A stretch of DNA of 64,000 bases from a virus. Taxonomy: Duplodnaviria > Heunggongvirae > Uroviricota > Caudoviricetes. Under the pieces are notes generated by a model. It had not been told where the DNA came from and searched no databases. It saw only the letters and a list, made by a program, of their open reading frames with translations. The DNA is taken from IMG/VR virus record IMGVR_UViG_2531839524_000004, one strand, 5' to 3'. A program made the translations under genes and the position numbers. Shown here in pieces: positions 3,055 to 60,296 of the stretch; the stretch's first letter is position 1; each line of letters begins with the position of its first letter.

Positions 3055-5088
3055 ATGACCCAAGTCGCGAAGAAAATTCTGGTGACGTGCGCGCTGCCGT
3101 ACGCTAACGGCTCAATCCACCTCGGCCATATGCTGGAGCACATCCAGGCTGATGTCTGGGTTCGTTACCAGCGAATGCGCGGCCACGAGGTTAATTTCAT
3201 CTGTGCCGACGATGCCCACGGTACGCCAATCATGCTGAAAGCACAGCAGCTTGGTATCACACCGGAACAGATGATTGGCGAAATGAGTCAGGAACATCAG
3301 ACTGATTTCGCAGGCTTTAACATCAGCTATGACAACTATCACTCGACGCACAGCGAAGAGAACCGTCAGTTGTCCGAGCTTATCTACACTCGCCTGAAAG
3401 AGAACGGTTTTATTAAAAACCGCACCATCTCTCAGCTGTACGATCCGGAAAAAGGCATGTTCCTGCCGGACCGTTTTGTGAAAGGCACCTGCCCGAAATG
3501 TAAAGCACCGGATCAATACGGCGATAACTGTGAAGTCTGCGGCGCTACTTACAGCCCGACTGAACTGATCGAGCCGAAATCGGTAGTTTCTGGTGCTACG
3601 CCGGTAATGCGTGATTCCGAACACTTCTTCTTTGATCTGCCTTCTTTCAGCGAAATGTTGCAGGCATGGACCCGCAGCGGTGCGTTGCAGGAGCAGGTGG
3701 CAAACAAAATGCAGGAGTGGTTTGAATCTGGCCTGCAACAGTGGGATATCTCCCGCGATGCGCCGTACTTCGGTTTTGAAATTCCGAACGCACCGGGCAA
3801 ATATTTCTACGTCTGGCTGGACGCGCCGATTGGCTACATGGGTTCCTTCAAGAATCTGTGCGACAAACGCGGCGACACTACCAGCTTCGACGAATACTGG
3901 AAGAAAGACTCCACCGCCGAGCTGTACCACTTCATCGGTAAAGATATCGTTTACTTCCACAGCCTGTTCTGGCCTGCCATGCTGGAAGGCAGCAATTTCC
4001 GCAAGCCGACCAACCTGTTTGTTCATGGCTATGTGACGGTGAACGGTGCGAAGATGTCCAAGTCTCGCGGCACCTTTATTAAAGCCAGCACCTGGCTGAA
4101 TCATTTTGACGCTGACAGCCTGCGTTACTACTACACTGCGAAACTCTCTTCGCGCATTGATGATATCGATCTCAACCTGGAGGATTTCGTTCAGCGCGTG
4201 AATGCCGATATCGTGAACAAAGTGGTTAACCTGGCCTCCCGTAATGCAGGCTTTATCAACAAGCGTTTTGACGGCGTGCTGGCAAGCGAACTGGCTGACC
4301 CGCAACTGTACAAAACCTTTACTGATGCTGCTGAAGTGATTGGTGAAGCATGGGAAAGCCGCGAATTTGGTAAAGCGATTCGTGAAATCATGGCGCTGGC
4401 TGATCTGGCTAACCGCTATGTCGATGAACAGGCTCCGTGGGTGGTGGCGAAGCAGGAAGGGCGCGATGCCGATCTGCAGGCGATTTGCTCTATGGGCATT
4501 AACCTGTTCCGCGTGCTGATGACGTACCTGAAACCGGTACTGCCGAAACTGACTGAACGTGCAGAAGCATTCCTGAATACAGAACTGACCTGGGATGGTA
4601 TCCAGCAACCGCTGCTGGGCCATAAAGTGAATCCGTTCAAGGCACTGTATAACCGCATCGACATGAAGCAGGTTGAAGCACTGGTGGAAGCATCCAAAGA
4701 GGAAGTAAAAGCCGCTGCCGCGCCAGTAACTGGCCCACTGGCAGATGATCCGATTCAGGAAACCATCACCTTTGACGACTTCGCCAAAGTTGACCTGCGC
4801 GTGGCTCTGATTGAAAACGCGGAGTTTGTCGAAGGTTCTGACAAACTGCTTCGCCTGACGCTGGATCTCGGTGGCGAAAAACGTAATGTCTTCTCCGGCA
4901 TTCGTTCCGCTTATCCAGATCCACAGGCACTGATTGGTCGTCACACCATTATGGTGGCCAACCTGGCTCCGCGTAAAATGCGCTTCGGTATCTCCGAAGG
5001 CATGGTGATGGCTGCTGGCCCCGGCGGGAAAGATATCTTCCTGTTAAGCCCGGATGCTGGTGCTAAACCAGGCCACCAGGTTAAGTAA
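3055..5088 (+). CDS. metG: methionine--tRNA ligase
   Basis: Class I aaRS motifs ([16 protein letters not shown]) and Zn knuckle CPKC...CEVC; start taken at MTQVAKKIL (3055) rather than the upstream in-frame ATG at 2926. Confidence 0.95.
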
Positions 5089-7696: not shown

Positions 7697-8017
7697 TAGC
7701 GAGAGGGAGAGTTGCGGCTACCCACCTGTAATGTGCGGGAAGAAGAGAGGCGCTCACGTAGGCGGACTTGCTTACCGCTGGATTCCCTCTGAATGCCCAG
7801 CTACAGCGTAATTGTGCCAGACAGCCAACGGGTCACAATCGATTTCAGTAGGTTTTTGGGGAGAGGATTACTCTGCCACCAGCCACTTTCGGCCACTAAA
7901 TCAGAATAATGTAAAAAGTGTACTCGGTACTGAACCTGAAAACTCACTGCCAAAACCACATTCACCGGAATAAAATCCTTTTTCGCCTGTGCGTTATTGC
8001 GATAATAACACCATCAA

Positions 8018-8032
8018 GAAAACATGTTGTTT
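8018..8032. promoter_or_regulatory. operator-like palindrome (variant GAAAACA-TG-TTGTTT)
   Basis: Immediately upstream of the RBS of gene 8045. Confidence 0.45.
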
Positions 8033-8044
8033 AAGGATTGCTTT

Positions 8045-8374
8045 ATGTTTACAAATATCGACATCAACCAAATCAAGAAATTAACTCAAAAAGAGTTTGA
8101 TCAGTTTTATGAGTTAGAAGGTTGGTCTTCCACTCTGATCAATTCAAGATGGGTGCTGGAACTGATGACTCGTGATGACGCACCTGCTTTGATGATCAGC
8201 GACCTGGGTGAAGATGCTGACTTTATGGATATGAGCGAATTTTGTGTGGACACATACAACCGCAGCCAGAAGTACTACTTCACATGCGATAGCGAAAATG
8301 ACGTGATTTCTAAGGTCTATCTTCACCTCGTCCAGCATTGGAACGTTCAGGAGTTTCTTGAAGTATTCGAGTAA
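8045..8374 (+). CDS. hypothetical acidic protein
   Basis: ORF track (8024-8374); start moved to MFTNIDI because ATG 8024 lies inside the operator motif and AAGGA RBS precedes 8045. Confidence 0.5.
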   Translation: MFTNIDINQIKKLTQKEFDQFYELEGWSSTLINSRWVLELMTRDDAPALMISDLGEDADFMDMSEFCVDTYNRSQKYYFTCDSENDVISKVYLHLVQHWNVQEFLEVFE

Positions 8375-8383
8375 CCCCAACCA

Positions 8384-8410
8384 AAGCCAGCATTGCTGGC
8401 TTAATTTCTC
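8384..8410 (+). terminator. hairpin after gene 8045-8374
   Basis: aagccagc-att-gctggctt followed by AATTTCTC (weak U-tract). Confidence 0.4.
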
Positions 8411-8501
8411 TATAGCCGCAGGGAAGAACCTGCATATAGCTCATGCACCTGATCAATATGCTTTGTAGCCGTTTTCTTACTGGTATTATTTACGCCATTG
8501 A

Positions 8502-8516
8502 GAAAACAAGTTGTTT
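8502..8516. promoter_or_regulatory. operator-like palindrome GAAAACAA-G-TTGTTT
   Basis: Abuts the RBS of gene 8528. Confidence 0.5.
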
Positions 8517-8527
8517 ACGGAGTTGTG

Positions 8528-8839
8528 ATGAAAAAATCATTGGTTCTTGGTCTGGACAAAGACCAGAAGAGAAAAGAGAAGCCTGCGCTGGTTGCTCAAT
8601 TAACTTTGCTGGACATCGTTGCCAATGGGACCTCTATTCGTCTGTTCCGTGAAACAGCGGTGTCTTTCGATAAAAACACCTTTACTCGTTATGTAATGAA
8701 TGTTCGTCGCCAGCGTGGAAAAGGCTGGGTGGCATTTCAAAGAATGTGGCCGGAACATCAGCTCGAACTTGCTTTGATGGAAGTTAACCGCGTGGCCCAG
8801 CAAGAGATTCAGAGAGCATCAGTGATGGCAATAGCCTGA
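8528..8839 (+). CDS. hypothetical basic protein
   Basis: ORF track (8498-8839); start moved to MKKSLVLG after RBS ACGGAG; lysine/arginine-rich. Confidence 0.5.
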   Translation: MKKSLVLGLDKDQKRKEKPALVAQLTLLDIVANGTSIRLFRETAVSFDKNTFTRYVMNVRRQRGKGWVAFQRMWPEHQLELALMEVNRVAQQEIQRASVMAIA

Positions 8840-8873
8840 TAATGTGCAAGTGGTAATTAGTCGACCGTACGAC

Positions 8874-8902
8874 AGCCCCGCCATCCTTACGGGGCTTTTT
8901 TG
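8874..8902 (+). terminator. intrinsic terminator
   Basis: agccccg-ccatccttac-ggggct followed by TTTTTT. Confidence 0.6.
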
Positions 8903-8965
8903 TATTGTAAGTACATACTTACGATCATAGAATAGAAAAATAACCAATACACTACGGAGAGTGAA

Positions 8966-9361
8966 ATGACCGCTAAACGCGAAAAACTGACAGTTGATGT
9001 TTACTATGCCTCTGAAACCGCCGAAGGTAAGAATGTGGCAAAAATCACCGTTGTTACGTACAACACCGAAACTGGTGCCGAAGTCCAGGCCAGTACGATC
9101 GTGCGTAAAGGTGATGCCTCCGGCGGCGAGTACGCGACTCAATACCAGTCTATTTTCGATGCAACTGACCCGCTGCTGCTGAAAATCGAGAACTACTTCC
9201 GCCAGGTTGATGAAGAGGTGTTTGAAACCATGATGAATATGGTTAACACCGTATTCGCCTCCAGCCTGAATACCAACACTACCTGGATTGGTCAGTACGG
9301 CCTGCGCATTACCTCCGGCATTCCTGCTGACACCTTAATCCCTGAAAGCGTATTCGCTTAA
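8966..9361 (+). CDS. hypothetical protein
   Basis: ORF track, 131 aa; RBS ACGGAGAG upstream. Confidence 0.55.
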   Translation: MTAKREKLTVDVYYASETAEGKNVAKITVVTYNTETGAEVQASTIVRKGDASGGEYATQYQSIFDATDPLLLKIENYFRQVDEEVFETMMNMVNTVFASSLNTNTTWIGQYGLRITSGIPADTLIPESVFA

Positions 9362-12739: not shown

Positions 12740-13048
12740 TTATTGAACAGACTCTACAGCCTTACGATTGGTGTCAAATAGCGCATCAACGAACTGTGCC
12801 GATGACTCGCTAGATTCGCAATCCAACATTGCCCGTTCTTCATTTGCCACTTTCTTACACAGTTCCACATTCTCACCTATCGCTTTTCCTGCTTTTACGG
12901 CTGCCGAAAATTGATACATGCAAACTGATACATTCTGAGACGTTGAGCACACGTCATTCATCAGCGACTGAATGACAGGCTTATAGTCCATTGCATTTGC
13001 CGCAACTGAGCAAAGTAAAAATAATGGTGGTAACAATATCGATTTCAT
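12740..13048 (-). CDS. hypothetical secreted/periplasmic protein
   Basis: ORF track, 102 aa; N-terminal signal-peptide-like MKSILLPPLFLLCSVAANA; several cysteines. Confidence 0.55.
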   Translation of the reverse strand: MKSILLPPLFLLCSVAANAMDYKPVIQSLMNDVCSTSQNVSVCMYQFSAAVKAGKAIGENVELCKKVANEERAMLDCESSESSAQFVDALFDTNRKAVESVQ

Positions 13049-13051
13049 AAC

Positions 13052-13576
13052 TCAAAAAGGCAAAATTCGTTCAACCCAATCGAACAAAACAACTATTTTT
13101 CTACCGTTCTCGACACGTAGTGTAACCTGACAAGCATCTGCGCCTGCTGACACCCCCTCAATTTCACGGCCATCCGCCATGTACACCCTTATAGATTTGT
13201 TTGCTTTGTAGGCTTGGTTGCAAATTGCAAAAAAATCGCGGCGTGATGGCCGATTATCGACATAATCAGGGTGAACTGTTAGTCGACCTTTGAAATCGTG
13301 TGCGATACTGTCAACCACACCTGATTCAATTGTACTAATGCGTTCAAGTGGGAGCCTTATACGATTTTCTTTGTCAAAAGGGGCTGGGCAAAGGTCAACT
13401 TTGTTACGAGATGGCATGAGGCCATAAACGTACATGCAAAACGCCTGGCCATCTTCGAGAGTGACCCTTACAGGAATTTGTTCTCTGCGCCAGAACATCA
13501 GTAGTTTTTCAACGTTAGTGTAATCTCGCGGCCAGAGTTCAGCTTGGATACCGTAGGTAATATCTTTGGTTGTCAT
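13052..13576 (-). CDS. hypothetical protein
   Basis: ORF track gives 13052-13654; start set at the internal Met (MTTKDITYG) to avoid overlap with the upstream lipoprotein gene. Confidence 0.45.
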   Translation of the reverse strand: MTTKDITYGIQAELWPRDYTNVEKLLMFWRREQIPVRVTLEDGQAFCMYVYGLMPSRNKVDLCPAPFDKENRIRLPLERISTIESGVVDSIAHDFKGRLTVHPDYVDNRPSRRDFFAICNQAYKANKSIRVYMADGREIEGVSAGADACQVTLRVENGRKIVVLFDWVERILPF

Positions 13577-13580
13577 GTCA

Positions 13581-14003
13581 TCACAGAGTTGTTGGCAGAA
13601 TGTCGATGTCACCAGAATTGCTGGTGAACACCCTGAACGCTTTTGTGTCTCCATTCTTCAGAGTCGTTTCTCGCTCTTGACGAGCGGGGTTTAGAGCACA
13701 TAAACCTGCACCTTCAAGAGATGCACCCACAATTAATTCTCCGGCATTTAAATGGAAAGTCGCTTTTTCGCCTGTAGCCAGTTTTGCGACAGTTTCGCCG
13801 TTGATGAAAATGGAAGCATCACATCCAGCTCCTACAAAACCTGTGTCTCTCATTACCACCAACGTAGCTGGCGCTGCGCTTTGATACTTGAACACTTTGG
13901 CCTGCGGTGCTGGTTTGGCGTCATGGATTGATATTGGGCGTGATTGGCACGCGGTAAGCATCAACACTGGTAACGTTAGTAGAGGGAGAAGCGAGTATTT
14001 CAT
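13581..14003 (-). CDS. putative lipoprotein
   Basis: ORF track (13581-14045); start at MKYSLLPLLTLPVLMLTAC gives a signal peptide ending in lipobox LTAC. Confidence 0.55.
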   Translation of the reverse strand: MKYSLLPLLTLPVLMLTACQSRPISIHDAKPAPQAKVFKYQSAAPATLVVMRDTGFVGAGCDASIFINGETVAKLATGEKATFHLNAGELIVGASLEGAGLCALNPARQERETTLKNGDTKAFRVFTSNSGDIDILPTTL

Positions 14004-14071
14004 GATAGTTTTAGAACAGAAAGTGAACAGTATGGGAGACTTCATCTTTGTCTCCCTAATTGATAGCGTGA

Positions 14072-14350
14072 TTATTTTAATCTGCTTAATAGCGTTTCGA
14101 GATCTTCCTTTGTCATATTAGAGTTCTCATAGATACGCATGATTTTCTCACGAGTCTTAGCGGAAGCCCCGACAGAAGATATAACCTTGTCAAAGTCGGC
14201 CATTGTCAATTGTTCCAGAATGGTATTTATGACTTCAGCCTTAGACATTTTGATATTTTTTTCTTTTAGTTTCACTTGAAACTTTCCAAGTTTGTCATTG
14301 GCCTTATCAGACAATGCTACCTGACAATAAGTTGTTTTCTTTTCGCTCAT
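14072..14350 (-). CDS. hypothetical protein
   Basis: ORF track, 92 aa; starts 3 nt after the helicase stop. Confidence 0.5.
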   Translation of the reverse strand: MSEKKTTYCQVALSDKANDKLGKFQVKLKEKNIKMSKAEVINTILEQLTMADFDKVISSVGASAKTREKIMRIYENSNMTKEDLETLLSRLK

Positions 14351-14352
14351 AA

Positions 14353-15912
14353 CTAATCTCGTTTCAGAACTCCAAAATCGAATGCTCCATCAATAGGCAA
14401 TACACCTTCTGCAAAGCCAGGTGTGGTGTCGATGATGTGTTTTCGCTCATAAGAGTGAGACAACAGGTATTTGTTGCTAATGTCAATGAAATCAGTGATA
14501 AAACACACGTTTGCCTGATTTTTTTTGGCTCGTAAGCCACGACCGACACGCTGCCTCATTTCAACTTCTGCTTTCCCACCACCAGCAAGAATGACCGCAC
14601 CAACGCTTGGCACATCAACACCGACATCCAGAATAGTCGAGCCTATTAAAACATCTATTTCTCCAGACGCTAAACTGTTCAGCTTTGCTTGCCTTGTCGT
14701 CTGGTTAGATTCCCCATAGATGAAATCAACTTTAAGACCTGACTCCTTCATCATCTCCATCAGGATTTGCCCGTGGCGTTTAAGACGAACCAGAGTCATG
14801 CAGTTGAGTGAATGTTGCTTATAAAGCAATGCCTCGCGCACTATGGCCTCGTTACGTCCCAAATTATACACGATCCCCAACTGATAAGCCTTTTGGTAGG
14901 CGGTGCTCATACCAACTCTAAAATTGAGGTGTTTGTTGGCAAGTTCGGCCTTGATTCTGGCCTCGTCTGGCTTGTAGGCAACTTTATGATAAAGGAAGTA
15001 CGGCTTTGCCAGAATGCCTCGATCAATCAGGTACTTTTCTGTGACTTTAATTTCAATTCGCCCGGCCACCGCCATCAGGCGCATGTTGGCTTCCGTCGAA
15101 TCCTTCATGAACGGCGTGGCTGTAAGCGCCAGACGATAGTCTGCGTTCACACATAATCTGGCAATGTCATAGAAATTAGAGCCTGAAGACTCATGCGCTT
15201 CTTCCAGAATAAGCAGAGACACACTTGAAAGGAAGCGTTTCACCAACTCCCGACGTTTGAGGTGGTAGCTCTTTTTATCTGGTGTTGCATCGCGTGGTGG
15301 TTCTTCAAGGAAACTTGCCAGAGTTTGAACTGTAGCGACGTTGATATGTCGTGATACCTGGAACTCACCCGAGCCAATGACTCCAACCTTTTGGTCTTTT
15401 AACCACGGTTCGCCATTTTCGGCGCGGTAGTCGATGGATCTCTGGAAGTTTTCGGCCATTTGAAACATCAGAACAGAGCGGGTTGTTAAAAATAATGTCA
15501 TTCGACCGATACGAGCAGCTGCTTTGCAGGCAACGTTAGATTTCCCGCCACCAGTAGCGATCTGCGCAATCATCATTCCCTCTCGAACCAGTGTTTCCAC
15601 AGTCTGATCCTGATACGCATAATCAGGATTGTATGGGAATGGGTTAACCGCAGGATTTGGTTTACCAAGCGCCGGGGCTTTGTCTTTGCGGATATGAACA
15701 CATTTGATGCCCGCCTTGTTCAAGTTCGCCGCTACAGGCTTGGCAAAGCCAGCAGGGAACGAGTTTTTACTCCAGTTGAACATCGTGCTTGTGCCCTTCC
15801 AGTCGCCAGTCTCGACTTCGTAGCTCAACATCTGTTGCACCATTTGCTTTACCTTGTCATCTGCGCCAGAAATAAGCGCATTAACTGCGTTAGATACAAT
15901 CCGAACAGTCAT
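14353..15912 (-). CDS. superfamily 2 DEAD/DEAH-box helicase
   Basis: Walker A ATGGGKS, Walker B/DEAH-like LILEEAH, motif III LALTATP; 519 aa. Confidence 0.8.
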   Translation of the reverse strand: MTVRIVSNAVNALISGADDKVKQMVQQMLSYEVETGDWKGTSTMFNWSKNSFPAGFAKPVAANLNKAGIKCVHIRKDKAPALGKPNPAVNPFPYNPDYAYQDQTVETLVREGMMIAQIATGGGKSNVACKAAARIGRMTLFLTTRSVLMFQMAENFQRSIDYRAENGEPWLKDQKVGVIGSGEFQVSRHINVATVQTLASFLEEPPRDATPDKKSYHLKRRELVKRFLSSVSLLILEEAHESSGSNFYDIARLCVNADYRLALTATPFMKDSTEANMRLMAVAGRIEIKVTEKYLIDRGILAKPYFLYHKVAYKPDEARIKAELANKHLNFRVGMSTAYQKAYQLGIVYNLGRNEAIVREALLYKQHSLNCMTLVRLKRHGQILMEMMKESGLKVDFIYGESNQTTRQAKLNSLASGEIDVLIGSTILDVGVDVPSVGAVILAGGGKAEVEMRQRVGRGLRAKKNQANVCFITDFIDISNKYLLSHSYERKHIIDTTPGFAEGVLPIDGAFDFGVLKRD

Positions 15913-15976
15913 AAACCTCTTTCCTTAGTGCCTTTTGTATGTTATTTGGCTATTATAATAAGTAAGTGATTACTTA

Positions 15977-16675
15977 GTGGATTGTAGCAATAAAATGGAT
16001 GTAAAAATCACGATTTTGCAGGTTGATGTTGCCAACCTTCGCCCGAATACCTGGAACACCAATTCGGTTGGTGCGCAGAATTTTGAAAAACTGAAAGGTT
16101 CTATCGAAAAATTGGGCTTTTTTAAGCCAATTTTGGCTCGTGAACTTGAAGATGGATTTTTTGAAATCCTCGGCGGCGAACATCGCTGGCGTGCTGCTAT
16201 TGAGCAAGGAATTTCAACGGTTCCGGTGCTTTCTGTGGGCAAAATTAGCGATGTCGTAGCTAAACAGATGTCACTGGTGGACAACGAGCGATACGGTGAA
16301 GACGACCAAATCGCATTGCAACGCTTCATTGAAGAAATTCAGTCAGAACTTGACTATCAACTGTCTGAAATCGCCCCGTATGACGACGAAATCTCGATGG
16401 TTTTAGCAAAAGAGGCGGCAATCGACCTTGAAGCACTGGAGGCGTTGTCTCGTGGTAGTGATGAGCCTGTCGATACCGACAAACGAGAGAAAACCGAACG
16501 TGTGGGTGCGGAACATCAGACCATGCGCTTCAAAGTAACTTTCGATGCGTCAGATCGTGTTGCAGAAACCATAAAAAACATCATCAAAGAGCAGGCTATT
16601 AACACCGGTAATGAAATGGAGAACGCTGGTGAGGCTCTGGTGTGGCTGGTCGACTACTACAAGGAGCGTATGTAA
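15977..16675 (+). CDS. ParB/Srx-fold nuclease-like domain protein 1
   Basis: N-terminal ParB-like core ...FKPILARELEDGFFEILGGEHRWRAA...; acidic C-terminus; start could be 15995. Confidence 0.7.
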   Translation: MDCSNKMDVKITILQVDVANLRPNTWNTNSVGAQNFEKLKGSIEKLGFFKPILARELEDGFFEILGGEHRWRAAIEQGISTVPVLSVGKISDVVAKQMSLVDNERYGEDDQIALQRFIEEIQSELDYQLSEIAPYDDEISMVLAKEAAIDLEALEALSRGSDEPVDTDKREKTERVGAEHQTMRFKVTFDASDRVAETIKNIIKEQAINTGNEMENAGEALVWLVDYYKERM

Positions 16676-17343
16676 TGACCAAAAAGTTTGAAATCGTATA
16701 TCGCGACCCGGCAGATCTTATTCCCTATGAGATGAATGCCAAAAAGCATGATGAACAGCAGATCCGAGATCTGGCCGCAGCCATTAAAAAGCGCGGATTT
16801 GACCAGCCAATTACGGTCGATAAGAACGACGTAATTATTACTGGCCACGGCCGCCGTGAGGCTGCAATTTTTGCTGGACTTGAGCGCGTACCGGTTATTG
16901 TTCGCGATGATCTCAGTGATGACGAGGTTCGTGCGAAGCGCCTTGAAGATAACCGACTTGCCAGCATTGATTACGATGCAATTAAGCTACAGAAAGAGCT
17001 TGAGTCGCTCGTTCTGGACGATATCGAGGTTTTCGGCTTTGAAGAGCGTGAGTTGAATGTTCTCGTTGGCAGTATGACAGAAGAAATGGACACCGACTCG
17101 CTAGTTATCGATCTTGGCGAAGAAACTAAACGACAGAAGGATGAACACACCGAGATCAGTCGTGAAGTTGCAGCGGAAGAAGTACGTGTTGTCGACGTAT
17201 TGGGCTTTAAAACGCTCCCTGCTGGCTCTGCCATTGTTGTTGGTGATTTGCTTGCCCACATGGAAGAAATGACGGGAGAAAGCGGGGTAGACGCATTTGT
17301 GGCATATGCGGAGAAGATCTCTTCCGGGGAGATGGCTGCATGA
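16675..17343 (+). CDS. ParB/Srx-fold nuclease-like domain protein 2
   Basis: ...FDQPITVDKNDVIITGHGRREAA...; start at MTKKFEIVY overlaps the upstream stop (TAATG), implying translational coupling. Confidence 0.7.
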   Translation: MTKKFEIVYRDPADLIPYEMNAKKHDEQQIRDLAAAIKKRGFDQPITVDKNDVIITGHGRREAAIFAGLERVPVIVRDDLSDDEVRAKRLEDNRLASIDYDAIKLQKELESLVLDDIEVFGFEERELNVLVGSMTEEMDTDSLVIDLGEETKRQKDEHTEISREVAAEEVRVVDVLGFKTLPAGSAIVVGDLLAHMEEMTGESGVDAFVAYAEKISSGEMAA

Positions 17344-18005
17344 GCAAATACATCATCAACGTATCGTTTCAGACACGCGTAAATAAAACCACGCGCACGT
17401 TGGAAATCGCTGAGTCGTTCGGGCTTGGCCTGGACGAAAAAGAGTGGACGCTTTACGACAATCTGGAGCTGGAAGTGAAGCAGGGCGATGTGGTGTACAT
17501 CACCGGCCAATCCGGTTCCGGCAAATCCGTTGTGCTGCGCGAGTTGCAACGACAGATGAAGGATGAAGGGCTGTCTGTAGCCTCCATCGATGATTTTACC
17601 TTCGATAATGAGGTTAACGTCATCGATCAGTTGGGCAAAACGACCAGTGATGCGCTTGGGTTGTTATCTATGGCTGGTCTGAACGATGCATATCTGTTTG
17701 TTCGCAAGCCTTCTGAAATGTCAGACGGCCAGAAATATCGTCTCAAGATTGCCAAACTGATTGAGTCAGGCGCTAAAGTGTGGGCTGCTGACGAGTTCGG
17801 CGCTGTTCTCGACCGTGTAACCGCTCAGGTTGTGGCGTCTAACCTCCAGCGTGCCGCGCGAAAGGTTGGTGCGACGGTAATGGTGGCGACGACTCACGAA
17901 GACCTGAAGAACGCGCTGCGCCCGGATATGCAGATCACCAAGCACTACAAAGAACGCGTGAAGGTGGAATATCACAATGGTAGTCATGATGAGGTCCATT
18001 CATGA
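17340..18005 (+). CDS. small ABC-type ATPase
   Basis: Walker A GQSGSGKS, signature-like MSDGQKYRL, Walker B VWAADEF, H-loop TTHE; start overlaps upstream stop (ATGA). Confidence 0.65.
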   Translation: MSKYIINVSFQTRVNKTTRTLEIAESFGLGLDEKEWTLYDNLELEVKQGDVVYITGQSGSGKSVVLRELQRQMKDEGLSVASIDDFTFDNEVNVIDQLGKTTSDALGLLSMAGLNDAYLFVRKPSEMSDGQKYRLKIAKLIESGAKVWAADEFGAVLDRVTAQVVASNLQRAARKVGATVMVATTHEDLKNALRPDMQITKHYKERVKVEYHNGSHDEVHS

Positions 18006-18892
18006 CGGACATCATCATTAAACGCTACCGCCCTGAAGAGTTTCCGCGTCATCTGGACTTTCTGGAGCGAATGACTGTTACAAAGGGAACTGTAGAGGAC
18101 TGGCACGCTCTTAAGTCGCTTCACTACAAAACAGACGGCAAACCTTTCGCGCCAACTTACTATCGCTGCGAACTTGATGACCGTCTGGTGGGCGTCGTGG
18201 TTATGGCTTACCCGAAACTACTGTTGGCACCTCGCCACCGCATGTTTCCTAAGTTGAAACCAACCACTAATACCACCGTGGCTAACCAGTACTGGGGTCG
18301 GTACGTGAATAACAACTTTGCGGTGATCAGTCGCTCAGTTGTGGATACTCAGTATCGTGGCGTAGGCGTCTCTTATCGAATGATTAACCTGGTTAGCAGG
18401 ATGCATGACCGGCCAATCATTGAGATCCAGTCCTCGATGAGCAAATACAATCCCTTCGCCATGAAAGCAGGGTTTAAGTTCATCCGCCCTGAGCGACCGA
18501 AGAGCTATGAAAGTGCACTGCGTGTATTCCAGCGCCATTTTCGTTCCGACCCGGGTGATAACGAGGCGATCGTCAAAGAGTTGTTCGCAATGAGCGAGTC
18601 TCGTCGTCGCCGTGCACTGCGTGATCTGGTGGCGGACTACCATAAGAACAGTTCCCTGGCAAAAGCTGGGCGGAATCGTGGCACGACGATTCAGGACATT
18701 GCCGACAGTCTGGTGGACGAGGCCAGCATTGTGAAGTTGCTCAAGGACATTCACAACCTGAGCTTTACGTCTCCGTTGTATGGGGTGTATCGAAACCCTG
18801 ACTTTGGTCGTCGACTGCCTGACACGCTGCCACTGCTGGCATTCGACAAACAACCTTTGGATAAACCGTTAGAAATTGCTTTACCGGCATAA
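18002..18892 (+). CDS. hypothetical protein, possible GNAT-type acyltransferase fold
   Basis: 296 aa; motif-A-like QYRGVGVSYRMINLV; assignment is weak; start overlaps upstream stop (ATGA). Confidence 0.4.
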   Translation: MTDIIIKRYRPEEFPRHLDFLERMTVTKGTVEDWHALKSLHYKTDGKPFAPTYYRCELDDRLVGVVVMAYPKLLLAPRHRMFPKLKPTTNTTVANQYWGRYVNNNFAVISRSVVDTQYRGVGVSYRMINLVSRMHDRPIIEIQSSMSKYNPFAMKAGFKFIRPERPKSYESALRVFQRHFRSDPGDNEAIVKELFAMSESRRRRALRDLVADYHKNSSLAKAGRNRGTTIQDIADSLVDEASIVKLLKDIHNLSFTSPLYGVYRNPDFGRRLPDTLPLLAFDKQPLDKPLEIALPA

Positions 18893-18901
18893 GGATTTGC
18901 C

Positions 18902-19168
18902 ATGACGTTAACCGATAAACAAAAGGACATCATCAAAACGCTCAATCTCGGTTATGAGCGAGGTCATCTACTTGATCTGGACGAATTGCTTGAAGTTTTG
19001 CCGTACAAGACAACCAAGCAAAGTATCCAGTTCTCAATTCGCGCTCTGATAAAAAAGGGGCTTGTGGAGAAAGGGCATACGCGCCAACGCAGTGACAATC
19101 GCTATCACCGCCGAACTCTTGGGTTAACCACTTTAGGTCGAGCCAAAGCGAAGTTACTGGTGATGTAA
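18902..19168 (+). CDS. hypothetical small protein, possible winged-helix DNA-binding fold
   Basis: ORF track, 88 aa, basic C-terminus; fold assignment is a guess. Confidence 0.35.
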   Translation: MTLTDKQKDIIKTLNLGYERGHLLDLDELLEVLPYKTTKQSIQFSIRALIKKGLVEKGHTRQRSDNRYHRRTLGLTTLGRAKAKLLVM

Positions 19169-19192
19169 TCGGTCTGGGAGCTTATTTAAAGA

Positions 19193-19249
19193 CCTGCTTC
19201 TGTATATATAAATAATAAGTAACTTATTAAATATATATACGGAAGCAGG
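19193..19249. repeat. 57-bp AT-rich palindromic repeat, copy 1
   Basis: cctgcttctgtatatataaataataagtaacttattaaatatatatacggaagcagg; identical copy at 50746-50802. Confidence 0.8.
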
Positions 19250-19286
19250 CTTAATAAGACATGCCCAGACCTAATTAAACAACCCA

Positions 19287-19301
19287 GAAAACAAGTTGGT
19301 T
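19287..19301. promoter_or_regulatory. operator-like palindrome GAAAACAA-G-TTGGTT
   Basis: First of two copies ahead of the small terminase gene. Confidence 0.45.
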
Positions 19302-19312
19302 AGAAAATGCAG

Positions 19313-19328
19313 TAAACAAGTTGTTTTA
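19313..19328. promoter_or_regulatory. operator-like palindrome TAAACAA-G-TTGTTTTA
   Basis: Second copy, about 40 bp upstream of ATG 19367. Confidence 0.5.
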
Positions 19329-19366
19329 GAGCGCATGGACGCGCTCTGTGTGTTTTAGAGGGATCT

Positions 19367-19999
19367 ATGACGGTCGAAAAAGACGAGGTAAAAACTCGCC
19401 TGACACCAGCGGAGTGGGCCGAAGCTGAAGCCAAATGGACGTCAGGCGAATATACACTCTCAAAGCTGGAGGAAGAGTACGGCATTCGTCGTGAAACACT
19501 CTCCAGACATTTCAAAAAGCGAGGATTAGAGAAAGGCGCGGACTCTGTTGGGAAGATGGTTCGTGAGTCTCTTAAATCTGACGCAGAGCTTCGCGCTAAA
19601 GCCCGTGCGGAAAAGATAGAAGAACGTCGTACACGTTATGACGGCTGGGCGTATGCGTTGGGGCAGATGGTGATGGTCGAAGTCACTACGGCCAAACGTG
19701 AGGGTAAGCCTTTAGGGGCGATTGAGGATTCTCTCAAGAGCTTACAGAGAGCCAGTAATACCCTTGCAAAATGCTTTGAAGTTTCGTCCAAAGCATTGGG
19801 CATGGATCATGCGGAAAATGACGAGGAAGAAATTCCGAACCTGGTATTTGGTGAGCTTACGCCTTCCCAGGTGGCGAAATTACGTCAGGAAGACGACGAG
19901 CCTGAAATCATCGATGACGAATTGCTTGAGACGTTGGAAGAAGAAGCTCTAAGCGAATTTGATGCGACAGATGATGGAAGTGAAGGGGAGGACGAATAA
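19367..19999 (+). CDS. terminase small subunit (putative)
   Basis: 210 aa directly upstream of the large terminase; N-terminal HTH-like region and acidic tail; call by position. Confidence 0.6.
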   Translation: MTVEKDEVKTRLTPAEWAEAEAKWTSGEYTLSKLEEEYGIRRETLSRHFKKRGLEKGADSVGKMVRESLKSDAELRAKARAEKIEERRTRYDGWAYALGQMVMVEVTTAKREGKPLGAIEDSLKSLQRASNTLAKCFEVSSKALGMDHAENDEEEIPNLVFGELTPSQVAKLRQEDDEPEIIDDELLETLEEEALSEFDATDDGSEGEDE

Positions 20000-21255
20000 T
20001 GGCAATCCCGTCCTCGCTCAGTCTTGTGCAACTGCATTCTGGACAGATGAAAGTCTTCCAGTCTCCGCATCGATTTAAAGTTGTTTGTGCTGGTCGACGC
20101 TGGGGAAAATCCCGGTTGTCGATCTCCACTATTATTCGTGCGGCGGCAAAGGAAAAAAAGCAAAGGGTCTGGTATGTCGCTCCTACTTACCAGATGGCTC
20201 GCCAGATTTTGTGGGACGATCTACAGGAAGTTCTGCCTCGTAAGTGGGTTAGGAAAAAGAACGACACCACGATGACAATCGTGTTGAAGAACGGTTCGGA
20301 GATCGCCCTCAAAGGTGCTGATAAGCCTGACACTCTGCGCGGCGTAGCGTTGCATTTTGTAGTGCTTGATGAATTTCAGGATATGAAGGCTGACACCTGG
20401 TACAAGGTGTTACGACCTACTCTTTCATCGACACGCGGCGGTGCACTGATCATTGGTACGCCAAAAGGTTTCTCGGAATTTCACAAACTGTGGACTATAG
20501 GCCAGAACGTAGAGCTGCAAAGAAAGGGACAGTGGAAGAGCTGGCAGTTTGTAACTGCCGATTCTCCGTTTGTGCCTACGGCGGAAATTGAAGCTGCTAA
20601 GAACGATATGGACCCGAAATCGTTCGCTCAGGAGTACCTGGCGAGCTTTGAGAACATGTCCGGGCGCGTTTACTACCCGTTCGATCGTAACGTGCATGTA
20701 AAACCGCTTCAGTTCAACCCTCGGTTGCCTATATGGGTAGGGCAGGACTTCAACATTGACCCGATGTCTTCAGTAATTTTGCAACCTCAGCCAAATGGTG
20801 AGCTATGGGCAATTGATGAATTGGTGCTCTTTTCCTCTAACACGGCAGAGGTTTGTGATGAGCTTGAGAGACGCTTCTGGCGCTGGAAATCACAGATAAC
20901 GGTATTTCCAGATCCGGCAGGTGCTTATCGCCAACATGCTCGCGGGGAGTCTGACGTCGACATATTCAAAGAGAAGGGATTCTTACGTGTCGATTATTCG
21001 AAAAAGCCCCCGCCAATTGCGGATCGTGTTAATGCTGTTAACCGAATGCTGATGACCGCATCTGGAGATATCCGGTTGTATATCGATCCGAAGTGCAAGC
21101 ATTTGATTGATTCACTGGAAAAAGTCATCTACAAGCCTGGAACACGAGATATGGATAAGACAGGTGGCATTGAGCATAGTGCAGACGCATTGGGCTATCC
21201 AGTACATCGTAGGTATCCAGTCAAAAACCGTGTTATTCTTGGTGGTTCTCGATAG
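19999..21255 (+). CDS. terminase large subunit
   Basis: Walker A VCAGRRWGKS, Walker B HFVVLDEF, C-terminal nuclease-like acidic residues; 418 aa. Confidence 0.9.
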   Translation: MAIPSSLSLVQLHSGQMKVFQSPHRFKVVCAGRRWGKSRLSISTIIRAAAKEKKQRVWYVAPTYQMARQILWDDLQEVLPRKWVRKKNDTTMTIVLKNGSEIALKGADKPDTLRGVALHFVVLDEFQDMKADTWYKVLRPTLSSTRGGALIIGTPKGFSEFHKLWTIGQNVELQRKGQWKSWQFVTADSPFVPTAEIEAAKNDMDPKSFAQEYLASFENMSGRVYYPFDRNVHVKPLQFNPRLPIWVGQDFNIDPMSSVILQPQPNGELWAIDELVLFSSNTAEVCDELERRFWRWKSQITVFPDPAGAYRQHARGESDVDIFKEKGFLRVDYSKKPPPIADRVNAVNRMLMTASGDIRLYIDPKCKHLIDSLEKVIYKPGTRDMDKTGGIEHSADALGYPVHRRYPVKNRVILGGSR

Positions 21256-21281
21256 GTAAGTAATTATCTAAGGTTATTCAA

Positions 21282-22856
21282 ATGGAATTGAACGACAAAC
21301 AAATTAAGGATCTGGTGGCGCGACGCCACCCGGAATACGAAAAGAAAAAAGAACATTGGGACTTCCTCGCCAGCACTTACGCTGGCGGGCGTGGTTGGTT
21401 TACAGACAATATCTTTCGTTACTTTAAAGAGGGAGATCAGGAGTTTAAGGAGCGAGTTGAGCGTGCTTATCGCTTCAACCACACTCGTGAGGTGGTAAAC
21501 CTCATCAACAAATATCTCTTTAAAGAAGACATTCATAGAAATATCGAAGAGGCACCAGAGCAGATCCGCAATTTCTGGAAACGTGCGACTCGCCAGAATG
21601 CCTCTATTGACTCATTTATGGCCGCTATTGATTTGCAGTCGTCTATTTACGGTCGCATATGGGTTGTTGTCGATAGCACGATGAGTGGTGATGTTGAGTC
21701 AGTAGCTGACGAGAAAAAGAAAGATGCTCGCGCCTACGCCTACTGGATTTCACCTCAGCAAATGCTGGATGTGGCATGGGACGACGACGGGAATATGTTG
21801 TGGGCGTTAATTGTGGAAGTCGCTCGTGATGACGCAGATCCTTTTACTTCTACAGGTCAGGAATACCAACGTTATCGTCTGTGGACACAAAACGAGTGGT
21901 ATCTGTTCCGTGAGGAAGTGAAGAAGGGCGCTGGTGGAGCAGGTCGCCGTCAGGCAAAAGTTATTTTAGAGGATAGCGGTGAGCATAATCTCGGCGTAGT
22001 TCCTGTGTTTCCTGTTGATTGTATTGGAGAAAGTGAATCACCGTATTTCAGCCCATCGTTGATCGATGATATCGCTTATCTTGATCGTGCGGTTGCAAAC
22101 TATCTGTCAAACCTTGATGCCATTATTCAGGATCAGACATTTAGCCAGTTGGCTATACCGGTACAGTCGCTTTTACCTGGTGATGAAAACCACACTAAAG
22201 TGCTTGAAATGGGCACAAAGCGAGTCTTCACCTACGATTCTGAAGGTGGAAACCAGCCGTTTTATCTGTCACCAGACCCGAAACAAGCTCAGATGATCAT
22301 CACTACGATTAAGACGGTGATTAACGAAATCTACCATTCAGTTGGTGTAGCTGGTGAGCGAACGAAGCAGGACAACGCACAGGGAATCGATAATTCATCT
22401 GGTGCCGCAAAAATGTATGACTTCCAGCGTGTAAATAGCTTGCTTGTCACAAAAGCAGAGCGTCTGGAAAGGGCTGAACGCCAAATCATGCTACTGGTTG
22501 CGAAATGGATGGGGGTAGATCTGGACGAAGACCACTCTTTAATTGCGTATCCAGAAAGTTTCGATATTCGTGGCCTTACTGATGAATTTTCTGTTGCCGA
22601 GAAACTGTCATTACTTCAGGCACCGGACTCTGTACGTCGTCACCAGATGGAAATGCTTATTGAGAAGATTTTCCCGAACATTACTGAGGCGATGAAAAAG
22701 GAATTTGATAAAGATCTCTTGAATTTTCCTCCAAAAAATGATCTAAATACCCTTGAAAATAAGTCAGTACTTACTTATGATCGTGGTGCAGCCCAAGAAA
22801 GCGGGCAAGATCAACCCCGAGGGAATGGGGACTCATCTACTCAAGAGAACGAGTGA
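21282..22856 (+). CDS. portal protein (putative)
   Basis: 524 aa immediately after the large terminase; call by size and synteny. Confidence 0.7.
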   Translation: MELNDKQIKDLVARRHPEYEKKKEHWDFLASTYAGGRGWFTDNIFRYFKEGDQEFKERVERAYRFNHTREVVNLINKYLFKEDIHRNIEEAPEQIRNFWKRATRQNASIDSFMAAIDLQSSIYGRIWVVVDSTMSGDVESVADEKKKDARAYAYWISPQQMLDVAWDDDGNMLWALIVEVARDDADPFTSTGQEYQRYRLWTQNEWYLFREEVKKGAGGAGRRQAKVILEDSGEHNLGVVPVFPVDCIGESESPYFSPSLIDDIAYLDRAVANYLSNLDAIIQDQTFSQLAIPVQSLLPGDENHTKVLEMGTKRVFTYDSEGGNQPFYLSPDPKQAQMIITTIKTVINEIYHSVGVAGERTKQDNAQGIDNSSGAAKMYDFQRVNSLLVTKAERLERAERQIMLLVAKWMGVDLDEDHSLIAYPESFDIRGLTDEFSVAEKLSLLQAPDSVRRHQMEMLIEKIFPNITEAMKKEFDKDLLNFPPKNDLNTLENKSVLTYDRGAAQESGQDQPRGNGDSSTQENE

Positions 22857-48787: not shown

Positions 48788-49456
48788 ATGACCAAGATCT
48801 TTGTGGTTGGCGGCACAAAGGGCGGGCCTGGCAAATCCACCGTTGCCCAGCAAATTGCCGTTTGCCTGAAAGTCAAAAAGAAGAAGAAGGTTTATATCAC
48901 TGATATAGATATTCAGCGCACGACAACAAGCTGGTGTGAAGACCGTCGACAGAACGAAGACCTTGAGCTGATTCCTTTTGCATACGTTCAGGATGACATC
49001 ATTAAGCACCTAAAATCGCTTCAGGGTAGAGCTGAGTTTGTAGTGGTAGATGCTGGTGGCTTTGACTCCGAAATTCAGCGACAAGCGATGCTGATGGCCG
49101 ACGTTATCATTATCCCGCTGCGTCCTAAGCGTCGTGATTTGAAATCTTTACGTGACATCGATCCTATTATCGACAATGTTCGTAATGTAAACGATAAAGT
49201 GAAGGTCCGCGCGGTCATGAACCAGTGCCCGGCTTTGCCATCACAAGTGTCTCGCATTTTGGCGGCTAAAGAGATTGTCGAGACGTTTGGCATCGAGTCT
49301 GCGCCAGTCAATTTATATAACCGCAACGTCTATGATGATGCGGAAGAGTCTGGTCGTTCTATCTTTGAAATGACCGGTAGCGAGCGCGACAAAAAGGCGG
49401 AAGCCGAGTTTGAAGAATTTGTAGATTATCTGTTGAGTCTGGAGGAAGAAGAATAA
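48788..49456 (+). CDS. ParA-type partition ATPase
   Basis: Deviant Walker A GGTKGGPGKST, Walker B-like FVVVDAGG; 222 aa. Confidence 0.85.
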   Translation: MTKIFVVGGTKGGPGKSTVAQQIAVCLKVKKKKKVYITDIDIQRTTTSWCEDRRQNEDLELIPFAYVQDDIIKHLKSLQGRAEFVVVDAGGFDSEIQRQAMLMADVIIIPLRPKRRDLKSLRDIDPIIDNVRNVNDKVKVRAVMNQCPALPSQVSRILAAKEIVETFGIESAPVNLYNRNVYDDAEESGRSIFEMTGSERDKKAEAEFEEFVDYLLSLEEEE

Positions 49457-50745: not shown

Positions 50746-50802
50746 CCTGCTTCTGTATATATAAATAATAAGTAACTTATTAAATATATATACGGAAGCA
50801 GG
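50746..50802. repeat. 57-bp AT-rich palindromic repeat, copy 2
   Basis: Identical to 19193-19249; lies in the divergent promoter region between the GIY-YIG gene and gene 50910. Confidence 0.8.
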
Positions 50803-59745: not shown

Positions 59746-59820
59746 GATGGTGTAGCTCAGCGGTAGAGCAGTTGGCTGTTAACCAACTGGTCGGTGGTTC
59801 GAATCCACCCACCATCGCCA
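59746..59820 (+). tRNA. tRNA-Asn (anticodon GTT)
   Basis: Manual cloverleaf: acceptor GATGGTG/CACCATC, D-arm GCTC..GAGC, anticodon loop CTGTTAA, T-loop TTCGAAT, 3' CCA. Confidence 0.8.
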
Positions 59821-59825
59821 ATTTA

Positions 59826-59912
59826 GGGGAGTTAGTCCGTAGAGGTAGCGGTGTAGACTGTAAATCTACTGTCATGGCGACTCGGGTGGTTCGACTCCAT
59901 CACTCCCCACCA
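59826..59912 (+). tRNA. tRNA-Tyr (anticodon GTA), long variable arm
   Basis: Acceptor GGGGAGT/ACTCCCC, anticodon loop CTGTAAA, long variable arm, T-loop TTCGACT, 3' CCA; D-arm non-canonical. Confidence 0.6.
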
Positions 59913-59916
59913 AATT

Positions 59917-59992
59917 GCCGGTTTAGCTCAGTTGGTAGAGCGCCTGCCTTGTAAGCAGGATGTCAGCGGTTCGAGTCCGTTAACCGGCACCA
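59917..59992 (+). tRNA. tRNA-Thr (anticodon TGT)
   Basis: Acceptor GCCGGTT/AACCGGC, D-arm GCTC..GAGC, anticodon loop CTTGTAA, T-loop TTCGAGT, 3' CCA. Confidence 0.8.
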
Positions 59993-60209
59993 ACACAACA
60001 GGAAAGAGCATTGAAACCCGCCGAGACTGCCCTGTTTTAAGCGTAAGTCCGTGCAAACGTCATACAGTGCTCTTTTCGTTGTGGTTGATGCGCAGACTGA
60101 TGCGCGGAAAGAAATGCCCCAGCGACACACGAGGCGAGTTCACACACTGCAATGCAGTCAGTAGCCGGGGTCGCTAAGCCGGAGATCAGTACCGGTAACC
60201 ACAACAATT

Positions 60210-60296
60210 GGAGAGTAGGGAGCATGGTGCTCAAGCGGTCTTGAAAACCGTCCCATTGTGCAAACGATGATGGTTCGATTCCATTACTCTCCGCCA
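60210..60296 (+). tRNA. tRNA-Ser (anticodon TGA), long variable arm
   Basis: Acceptor GGAGAGT/ACTCTCC, anticodon loop CTTGAAA, long variable arm, T-loop TTCGATT, 3' CCA. Confidence 0.65.

Follow-up and report, generated by a model that had tools for sequence, protein, structure and literature searches.

What is the function of the operon that lies between a helicase gene and the terminase genes in an SSU5-like phage-plasmid, and that encodes two ParB-like proteins together with an ATPase and a putative acyltransferase? The locus belongs to a stretch of 64,000 nucleotides of the tailed-phage (Caudoviricetes) record IMGVR_UViG_2531839524_000004 of IMG/VR, the whole of which is hereafter called the window. 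It comprises five co-oriented genes (15995-19168) encoding ParB1, ParB2, a soluble ABC-type ATPase, a GNAT-fold acyltransferase and a small winged-helix protein. The ATPase and the acyltransferase correspond to the two halves of a split protein of the ABC-ATPase-GNAT family. The function that we favour, to which we give slightly less than an even chance, is a late, ParB-assisted modification of DNA, dependent on ATP and acyl-coenzyme A (acyl-CoA), that would be made before packaging.

Nucleotide comparison of region 14000-21300 identified the window as an SSU5-like phage-plasmid. Identity in this region amounts to 98.9% with Escherichia phage CMS-2020a; the corresponding values are 98% for Cyrano (the plasmid prophage pLF82 carried by E. 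coli LF82), 97.5% for PhiR41_1, about 83% for Salmonella phage SSU5 and some 80% for phage-plasmids of Klebsiella. An initial annotation, made from the letters of the DNA, had proposed a five-gene operon (ParB, ParB, ABC, GNAT and a small DNA-binding protein) divergent from a helicase and upstream of the terminase; all its open reading frames (ORFs) are present in the window sequence, and ORFs and domains confirmed the arrangement.

The ATPase and GNAT genes encode the halves of one protein

The product of the third gene matches ABC_tran with 50.1 bits (cutoff 25) and shows the catalytic motifs Walker A (GQSGSGKS), signature (SDGQ(K/R)YR), Walker B/E (ADEF), D-loop (LDR) and H-loop (ATTH). Walker A, the SDGQ of the signature, the Walker B glutamate, the D-loop and the H-loop are invariant in six orthologues. 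A membrane permease partner was sought in the operon of the window and of its relatives, and none was found; the reading of this protein as part of an ABC transporter was rejected for want of such a partner, the database names being carried over from the ATPase domain.

The fourth product, which the initial annotation had taken for a putative acyltransferase, shows a GNAT fold in its AlphaFold model (pLDDT 86) and an invariant CoA-binding loop, R119-x-x-G122, both of which bear out that assignment. Furthermore, it contains a helical insertion of about 90 amino acids (aa) between alpha4 and beta6, and its core has a net charge of about +10. Matches among viral predicted structures include Mom and endonuclease-like myovirus proteins of 534-713 aa, while a sequence search of the PDB with this protein gave chance matches only.

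A GNAT profile found 887 matches in a library of 1.8 billion proteins. Many of them are 440-500 aa long; in these the profile matches the C-terminal half, and the N-terminal half is ABC_tran. The consensus of 22 of these fused proteins repeats the motifs of the window ATPase (RT..VAEAFGLG.DEK, GD.VYITG.SGSGKS, LSDGQKYR, DEF..LDR and ATTH), and the family-specific N-terminal extension of the window ATPase, RT..(I/V)AE(S/A)FGLGL, is also found at the N-terminus of the fused proteins of about 485 aa. One fused protein (P0185) aligns over both window genes with 96% coverage, and the Cyrano annotation names the GNAT gene 'MK0520, ABC-type ATPase fused to a predicted acetyltransferase domain'. Sequence alignment shows the ATPase and the GNAT protein to be homologous end to end to single fused proteins; the two form one functional unit. 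A first scan of viral contigs gave only close relatives; in a second scan, with fused proteins as queries, the IMG/VR loci numbered at least 566 with the fused form and 367 with the split form.

The family has been predicted to acylate a DNA nucleobase, with Tenacibaculum phage pT24 as exemplar, by Iyer et al. (Viruses 2021, PMC7824862), who credit the prediction to Iyer, Zhang, Burroughs and Aravind (NAR 2013, gkt573). The exemplar protein, pT24 gp038, matches our ABC hidden Markov model (HMM) at 3.9e-21 and the fused-protein HMM at 1.1e-32, and is also a tblastn match of a fused member; a GNAT part in pT24 was not detected with the HMMs of this analysis. The window unit shares with the predicted system the ABC family, with its N-terminal extension and motifs, and the GNAT family with the helical insertion. 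It differs in being split into two overlapping genes and in standing in a fixed operon with two ParB genes and a winged-helix gene, upstream of terS and TerL; the comparison is with a computational prediction and not with a mechanism. The statement of the initial annotation that no described system matches the module is therefore no longer tenable for its ABC and GNAT genes. No experimental work on the family was found in the searchable literature.

ParB1 and ParB2 are full-length paralogues

Both ParB proteins match ParB_N, with 49.9 bits for ParB1 and 35.0 bits for ParB2 (Pfam cutoff 26.3), and both have an N-terminal domain of nucleotide-binding fold and, beyond an acidic linker, a short C-terminal domain that is conserved. 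By BLASTP they are 33% identical over 116 aa, and hhalign aligns them over 208 columns with a probability of 99% and an E value of 3.5e-18; at the level of sequence they are full-length paralogues, as the initial annotation had supposed. The GxxR motif is present in ParB1 (GGEHRWRAA) and in ParB2 (GHGRREAA). The ParB1 motifs LRPNxWNxN and GGxHR are kept in five of six distant orthologues, the exception for GxxR being the ParB1 of phage ANB28 (GEHT), and the ParB2 motifs PY..N.K.H and GHGR are invariant across six orthologues.

ParB1 matches only the N-domains of Spo0J/ParB/Noc, and the alignment beyond approximately residue 100 is unreliable. Its AlphaFold model, built from a shallow alignment, has a mean pLDDT of 60, falling below 40 at the C-terminus, and the homologues listed for it are near-identical Klebsiella and E. 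coli proteins. ParB2 matches the N-terminus of phrog_498, 'DNA methyltransferase', at 5e-32 and that of PADLOC MTase_II at 2.7e-17. This type of domain is thus the N-terminal domain of phage ParB-methyltransferase fusions, and it also adjoins an ABC gene in Streptococcus phages.

The database name of these proteins, 'chromosome partitioning protein ParB', and the presence of two ParB-family proteins would suit a second partition or segregation system for the plasmid prophage. Like canonical ParABS with a type Ia ParB, they have the ParB N-terminal fold and the GxxR motif; unlike it, they lack a helix-turn-helix (HTH), a ParA-interaction motif and an adjacent ParA. A search for HTH matches of Pfam in ParB1 and ParB2 gave none, and their scores with TIGR00180, the ParB/RepB/Spo0J model of NCBIfam (43.3 and 43.0 bits), are under the cutoff of 58.45. 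The separate ParA reported by the initial annotation at 48.8 kb was recovered and matches phrog_164. The operon is, moreover, found in virulent, non-plasmid phages and is silent in a lysogen (see below). We consider a partition role to be improbable in the extreme, in line with the initial annotation, which had argued against it.

Genomic contexts of the ABC-GNAT family

The family was found in phages of Proteobacteria, Firmicutes and Actinobacteria and in proviruses of Bathyarchaeia. Among 72 metagenomic viral loci, 38 show the fused gene directly downstream of TerL, and genome matches assign many of the TerL-adjacent fused loci to Bathyarchaeia proviruses. The fused gene is common in metagenome-assembled genomes and proviruses of Bathyarchaeia and other Thermoproteota (L173-L211, genome contigs; L090-L169, IMG/VR), where it is typically the last gene of an operon that runs from the tail genes to TerL, for example tail tube, further tail genes, TerL and ABC-GNAT.

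ParB and ABC genes upstream of the terminase recur in two unrelated phages. In Streptococcus phage Javan511 the order is ParB_N, ABC, ASCH, DUF5681 and TerL, and the ParB_N protein matches the ParB2 HMM at 1.6e-36. In Gordonia phage AnClar a ParB-like gene that spans the cohesive ends is followed by HNH, fused ABC-GNAT, formyltransferase and terminase genes. Neighbours of the fused gene include ASCH domains (five members), Amidoligase_2, N6/N4 and C5 DNA methylases, Formyl_trans_N and an archaeal integrase; the Amidoligase_2 locus shows ParA upstream, and TerL and portal genes a few genes downstream. Fusions of a family B DNA polymerase to ABC-GNAT also occur; the gene of one of them, P0205 (1260 aa; L007/L008, 8001-11783), is part of a viral replication module that further comprises primase-polymerase, RecA and SbcC-like genes, and has no terminase near it. 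Variants among P0205, P0176, P0166 and P0154 include an intein with LAGLIDADG in the ABC domain and a C-terminal TFIIB repeat.

That ABC-GNAT is repeatedly linked to 'reader' domains of the ASCH type, to DNA methylases, to the terminase and to a DNA polymerase is among our reasons for favouring a modification of DNA, and a nucleic acid would suit the strongly basic GNAT core as substrate. The same pairing of an ATPase with a GNAT domain could also act on RNA. In TmcA and NAT10 a P-loop ATPase is coupled to a GNAT domain that acetylates a nucleobase to N4-acetylcytidine, and ASCH domains, which neighbour the fused genes, include an N4-acetylcytidine amidohydrolase. A similar modification of phage or host tRNA would fit the tRNA genes of the phage, four of which lie at 59746-60296 of the window (Asn-GTT, Tyr-GTA, Thr-TGT and Ser-TGA), its putative methionyl-tRNA synthetase near 3055-5088, placed there by correspondence with the PhiR41_1 and Cyrano annotations, and the tRNA-Met and tRNA-Asn genes just upstream of the helicase in phage nickie. 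However, TmcA and NAT10 have an RNA substrate and a RecD-like helicase domain instead of an ABC domain, and show no sequence relation to the window proteins; the window tRNA genes are 40 kb from the operon, and the ParB partners, the polymerase fusion and the adjacency to TerL indicate DNA. Modification of RNA is accordingly considered very unlikely.

Organization of the locus

Coordinates are given in Table 1. The helicase is divergent from the operon, with an intergenic region of 82 bp before ParB1, and a 198-bp spacer separates the operon from terS, which is followed by TerL and the portal genes.

Table 1. Features of the operon and its surroundings in the window, with the RNA-seq values of the corresponding genes of the Cyrano prophage
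Feature	Position	Strand	Matches and remarks	Cyrano gene	RNA-seq value
92-aa protein	14072-14350	-	phrog_1466; directly downstream of the helicase	CYRAN_117	114
UvsW-like superfamily 2 (SF2) helicase, 519 aa	14353-15912	-	ResIII, DEAD, Helicase_C, phrog_16; UvsW helicase in the Cyrano annotation	CYRAN_118	46
Short palindrome TAAGTAA-GTGA-TTACTTA	15959-15976		In the helicase/ParB1 intergenic region		
ParB1, 226 aa, isoelectric point (pI) 4.6	15995-16675	+	ParB_N; phrog_723 full length	CYRAN_119	5.0
ParB2, 222 aa, pI 4.5	16675-17343	+	ParB_N; phrog_930 full length	CYRAN_120	9.5
Soluble ABC-type ATPase, 221 aa	17340-18005	+	ABC_tran; N-terminal half of the split ABC-GNAT	CYRAN_121	9.2
GNAT-fold acyltransferase, 296 aa, pI 9.8	18002-18892	+	C-terminal half of the split ABC-GNAT	CYRAN_122	8.0
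Small basic winged-helix protein, 88 aa, pI 10.2	18902-19168	+	phrog_900 full length; last gene of the operon	CYRAN_123	7.8
101-bp imperfect palindrome	19171-19271		Operon/terS boundary; perfect-identity 57-bp core (19193-19249) shared with the second copy		
terS-like DNA-binding protein, 210 aa	19367-19999	+	phrog_867 full length; terminase small subunit in the Cyrano annotation		
TerL, large terminase, 418 aa	19999-21255	+	Terminase_6N, Terminase_6C		
ParA	48788-49456		phrog_164; about 30 kb from the operon		
Second exact copy of the 57-bp palindrome	50746-50802		Upstream of a replication operon (phrog_2500, DnaB-like helicase, primase)		

The junctions TAATG, ATGA and ATGA that the initial annotation had described were confirmed from the sequence. 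The TAA stop of ParB1 (16673-16675) overlaps the ATG of ParB2 (16675-16677), the ATGA between ParB2 and ABC lies at 17340-17343 and that between ABC and GNAT at 18002-18005. Between the GNAT stop, which is at 18892, and the ATG of the winged-helix gene at 18902 there is a gap of 9 bp, and Shine-Dalgarno-like motifs (AAGGAG, GGGGAG, GAGG and AAGGA) are found within the gene preceding each downstream start. ParB1 was said to start at GTG 15977, which is possible; the start is most likely ATG 15995, as in the Cyrano annotation, giving 226 aa. ParB2 starts at 16675 (222 aa) and not at the upstream GTG 16642. Overlaps between starts and stops are frequent in phage operons and are unremarkable by themselves.

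Conservation across the phage clade

By tblastn, the GNAT gene is present in 31 cultured phage records: 12 are SSU5-like phages, ten infect Rhizobium, six infect Pseudomonas (Nickievirus), two Stenotrophomonas and one Xanthomonas. Their genomes range between 84 and 122 kb, mostly 105-122 kb. The carriers are exactly those records (31 of 31) in which TerL shows 53% identity or more with that of the window, and the next relatives of TerL, at most 45% identical, come from small phages. The order is fixed as helicase (reverse strand), ParB1, ParB2, ABC, zero to three small inserts, GNAT, winged-helix gene, spacer, terS, TerL and portal. Essentially all of the 80 close IMG/VR loci that have sufficient flanking sequence show this order, and so do, at about 41-44% protein identity, five distant loci: the phages nickie, RHph_N1_15 and ANB28, a contig of Ectothiorhodospira and a metagenomic contig of 3.3 Mb. 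Several carriers are virulent, among them phages of Pseudomonas, Rhizobium and Stenotrophomonas. The operon therefore belongs to the core of the lineage and is neither a plasmid function nor a variable island.

This comparison of neighbourhoods, which had been suggested in the initial annotation, upheld the order and showed that the overlap between ABC and GNAT is not universal. The spacing of the window is shared by only 17 of about 80 close relatives, and the rest have an extra ORF at this junction, which is an insertion hotspot. In close relatives the inserts are an 84-aa ORF (L024:7741-7995) or an ORF of about 183 aa with a metalloprotease-like HEALH motif (L053:7453-8004), and in distant relatives (L005:5043-5345 and L002:6961-7999) they are a Tad2-like anti-Thoeris gene, found in a Rhizobium phage, a Phage_gp49_66 gene and a RyR-domain gene. 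At the other end, GNAT and the winged-helix gene overlap from stop to start in four of the five distant relatives; in the remaining one, L005, they adjoin directly.

The Tad2-like gene and other small accessory genes inside the operons of relatives would fit a function in host takeover or anti-defence, in which GNAT would acetylate a host protein, a defence protein or a signalling nucleotide, and the ABC and ParB proteins would serve as regulatory NTPases. Phage GNATs that modify host proteins are known, such as Rac of phiKMV, which acts on RNA polymerase (PMC7824862), and the window GNAT could be another. On the other hand, all conserved and fusion partners (ParB fold, family B DNA polymerase, TerL and winged helix) are DNA-related, the GNAT core is more suited to a nucleic acid, and takeover genes are usually early and variable instead of forming a fixed core beside the terminase. 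We think that such a role is improbable.

Two groups of genes outside the operon were also recorded. Two distant relatives have a gene for dCMP deaminase (L002, 1108-1569, and L003, 2695-3183), separated from the helicase by a few genes, and L002 also shows a radical SAM gene near it. The PhiR41_1 genome (L253), outside the window, encodes a 367-aa thymidylate synthase with insertions (7981-9084) and a phage N6-adenine methyltransferase (12818-13411; TIGR01712, 112 bits), as well as ribonucleotide reductase, dihydrofolate reductase and a Pol III alpha subunit. The ThyA-like protein was considered as a hydroxymethylase feeding hypermodification and was rejected, as it scores as a true thymidylate synthase (TIGR03284, 222 bits; cutoff 108).

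Expression in the Cyrano lysogen

The RNA-seq values of Table 1 come from Supplementary Table S1 of Misson et al. 2023 (PMC9928086) and refer to Cyrano in LF82 grown in LB, with a median prophage background of 9.8 and a cutoff for morons of 49; true morons in Cyrano are 6- to 700-fold above background. All five operon genes are at background, whereas the ParA-like gene (CYRAN_99) has a value of 92. In the lysogen the operon is thus off and the ParA-like gene on, which disfavours both partition and a defence expressed from the prophage; its silence fits a role in the lytic cycle.

A phage-borne defence cassette, also suggested by the initial annotation, would be an anti-phage or superinfection-exclusion system built on the ABC ATPase. 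ABC ATPases anchor several defence systems, and that of the window has weak PADLOC matches to mad3/mad8 and PtuA, mainly over the P-loop; however, PADLOC gives no match for GNAT and matches the ParB proteins only to the N-terminal domains of MTase_II, so that no meaningful match remains. Together with the background expression, unlike that of true morons, and with the presence of a fixed core gene set in virulent phages across the clade, this leaves a defence cassette with hardly any probability.

The helicase is always adjacent to and divergent from the operon, in close and distant relatives alike. Its proposed place as a flank of the module stands as far as this conserved neighbourhood is concerned; however, it is regulated separately, its value being about 4.7-fold above background, and it is a conserved neighbour under different regulation with putative membership only. 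The 92-aa protein gene next to it is among the most highly expressed prophage genes, and this orthologue, CYRAN_117, is a moron.

Winged-helix protein and palindromes

The last product of the operon shows weak matches to Sta1/Lrs14 and LexA_DNA_bind and is a candidate DNA reader or regulator. The short palindrome between helicase and ParB1 is possibly the operator of the operon promoter. A scan for the sigma-70 consensus flagged no promoter in this intergenic region, and promoters were not above shuffles. The 11-mer ATAATAAGTAA is common to the short palindrome and to the large palindromes at 19212 and 50765; it occurs five times in the window against 1.0 expected, a number equalled by one of 100 shuffles and so only weakly above chance.

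The 57-bp palindrome, CCTGCTTCTGTATATATAAATAATAAGTAACTTATTAAATATATATACGGAAGCAGG, is identical at both window copies. In PhiR41_1 a further half-site is found just after the Dam-type methyltransferase gene. Half-sites are kept at the position near terS in more than 50 close relatives, and unrelated palindromes with AT cores occupy the same position in the distant relatives L005, L002 and L003. Furthermore, the database records of SSU5 and Cyrano end at window positions 19229-19230, inside the palindrome. The palindrome may serve as an operator or as a bidirectional terminator, or it may be connected with pac, cos or an origin.

The operon might be a packaging accessory: the ParB pair would bind near the packaging start, for instance at the palindrome near terS, and ABC-GNAT would assemble, remodel or regulate a complex of terminase, portal or DNA, possibly by acetylating a packaging protein, the DNA being unmodified. 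This would suit the large conserved palindrome between the operon and terS, the ParB-like gene of AnClar across the cohesive ends, the one-to-one carriage of the operon with the TerL clade, and the position of ABC-GNAT immediately beside terS or TerL in three unrelated architectures. However, the palindrome is also found at two other operon boundaries and hence is not specific to packaging; ABC-GNAT occurs within a replication module as part of a DNA polymerase fusion, and it often stands away from the terminase, as in pT24 and L110, with 3.5 kb and several genes in between. Its ASCH, methylase, amidoligase and formyltransferase neighbours are, moreover, typical of base-modification pathways. 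A packaging accessory is in our opinion unlikely.

A model of DNA acylation before packaging

DNA modification or anti-restriction near packaging, one of the possibilities raised by the initial annotation, remains a leading reading. In the modification that we favour, the ABC ATPase would dimerise on ATP, clamp or scan double-stranded DNA and present a base to the basic GNAT protein, which would move an acyl group from acyl-CoA to an exocyclic amine of that base, as Mom does on adenine N6. The acidic ParB paralogues would form a nucleotide-gated hetero-oligomeric activator or loader, for which ParB176 with 5mYOX176 on double-stranded DNA, DpdB with DpdA, and the ParB domains fused to methyltransferases serve as models, and the winged-helix protein would supply sequence reading or autoregulation. 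Concatemeric phage DNA would be marked after replication, just before the adjacent terminase packages it, and the mark would shield the injected genome from host restriction or other DNA-sensing defences. The Tad2-like gene between ABC and GNAT in a Rhizobium phage, which gives the unit an anti-defence surrounding there, is in keeping with this. In a more specific form, which we put forward tentatively and think rather unlikely to hold in full, the operon would install a chemically new acyl mark (for example N-acetyl on C, A or G) with ATP hydrolysis by an ABC clamp and a ParB heterodimer as loader, and the same family would do likewise in many tailed viruses of bacteria and archaea, at times attached to the DNA polymerase or placed beside the terminase.

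Several known systems resemble parts of this scheme. Mom of phage Mu (PDB 8bv8), which converts adenine to N6-carbamoylmethyladenine, has a GNAT fold, is among the viral structural matches of the window GNAT and is the product of a late gene acting on DNA after replication; this last likeness may extend to the window protein. The two share no detectable sequence similarity, the helical insertion is found in the window GNAT, and Mom, unlike that GNAT, has neither an ABC ATPase nor a ParB protein as partner. Fusions of Mom to nucleases occur in jumbo phages, according to Iyer et al. 2021 (PMC7824862).

For the ParB proteins, the phage thymine dioxygenase 5mYOX176 needs the ParB-like activator ParB176 on double-stranded DNA, and the proteins most often encoded beside such dioxygenases include terminases and ParBs (O'Toole et al., PNAS 2026, PMC13229309). 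As in the window, a ParB-fold protein without an obvious DNA-binding domain stands beside a DNA modifier, often near terminase genes, and ParB1 and ParB2 share its layout of an N-terminal nucleotide-binding domain and a C-terminal domain, a likeness by shared fold only; it differs in its Fe/2-oxoglutarate dioxygenase partner and in having one ParB instead of two paralogues. Furthermore, DpdB works with DpdA in 7-deazaguanine DNA modification (PMC10164549), and fusions of ParB to methyltransferases and to acetyltransferases exist (PMC12704722). In DpdA/DpdB and in the methyltransferase fusions a ParB-like NTPase assists or is fused to a base-modifying enzyme, and ParB2 matches the N-terminal ParB domain of those fusions (phrog_498, MTase_II). 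Both differ from the operon in chemistry and catalytic partner, and ParB2 has no methyltransferase domain.

A number of points weigh against the DNA modification that we favour. The substrate is deduced from context, and GNATs also acetylate proteins, RNA and small molecules. No report of modified DNA in SSU5-like or Nickievirus phages was found in the searchable literature, and the phage already has a Dam-type N6-adenine methyltransferase elsewhere. The adjacency to TerL could stem from late timing or from a permissive insertion site. ParB1 and ParB2 are very acidic and without a recognisable DNA-binding domain; their C-termini suggested a ribbon-helix-helix (strand-helix-G-x-S/T-helix pattern), and a profile search of the PDB for it was empty. 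Finally, the ParBs associated with 5mYOX are functional without NTP-binding residues, which makes nucleotide gating uncertain (PMC13229309).

Significance

The operon is a split, ParB-embedded member of a computationally known family and not a categorically new module. The ABC-GNAT proteins are a DNA-modification prediction made by comparative genomics in 2013, and they are abundant in viruses. The locus places the predicted system in phages that grow on E. coli K-12 (PhiR41_1) and Salmonella LT2 (SSU5), where it is directly testable, and SSU5-like phage-plasmids are common in clinical E. coli and Klebsiella. A negative outcome would shift attention to a terminase-linked role of the ABC-GNAT pair. 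If the favoured modification is true, it would add a new chemistry of DNA bases and a new enzyme logic in which an ABC ATPase and a GNAT act with a ParB loader, and it could explain the evasion of restriction by these phage-plasmids; its more specific form, with a chemically new mark, would establish a class of enzymatic DNA modification, and of ParB function, that is new.

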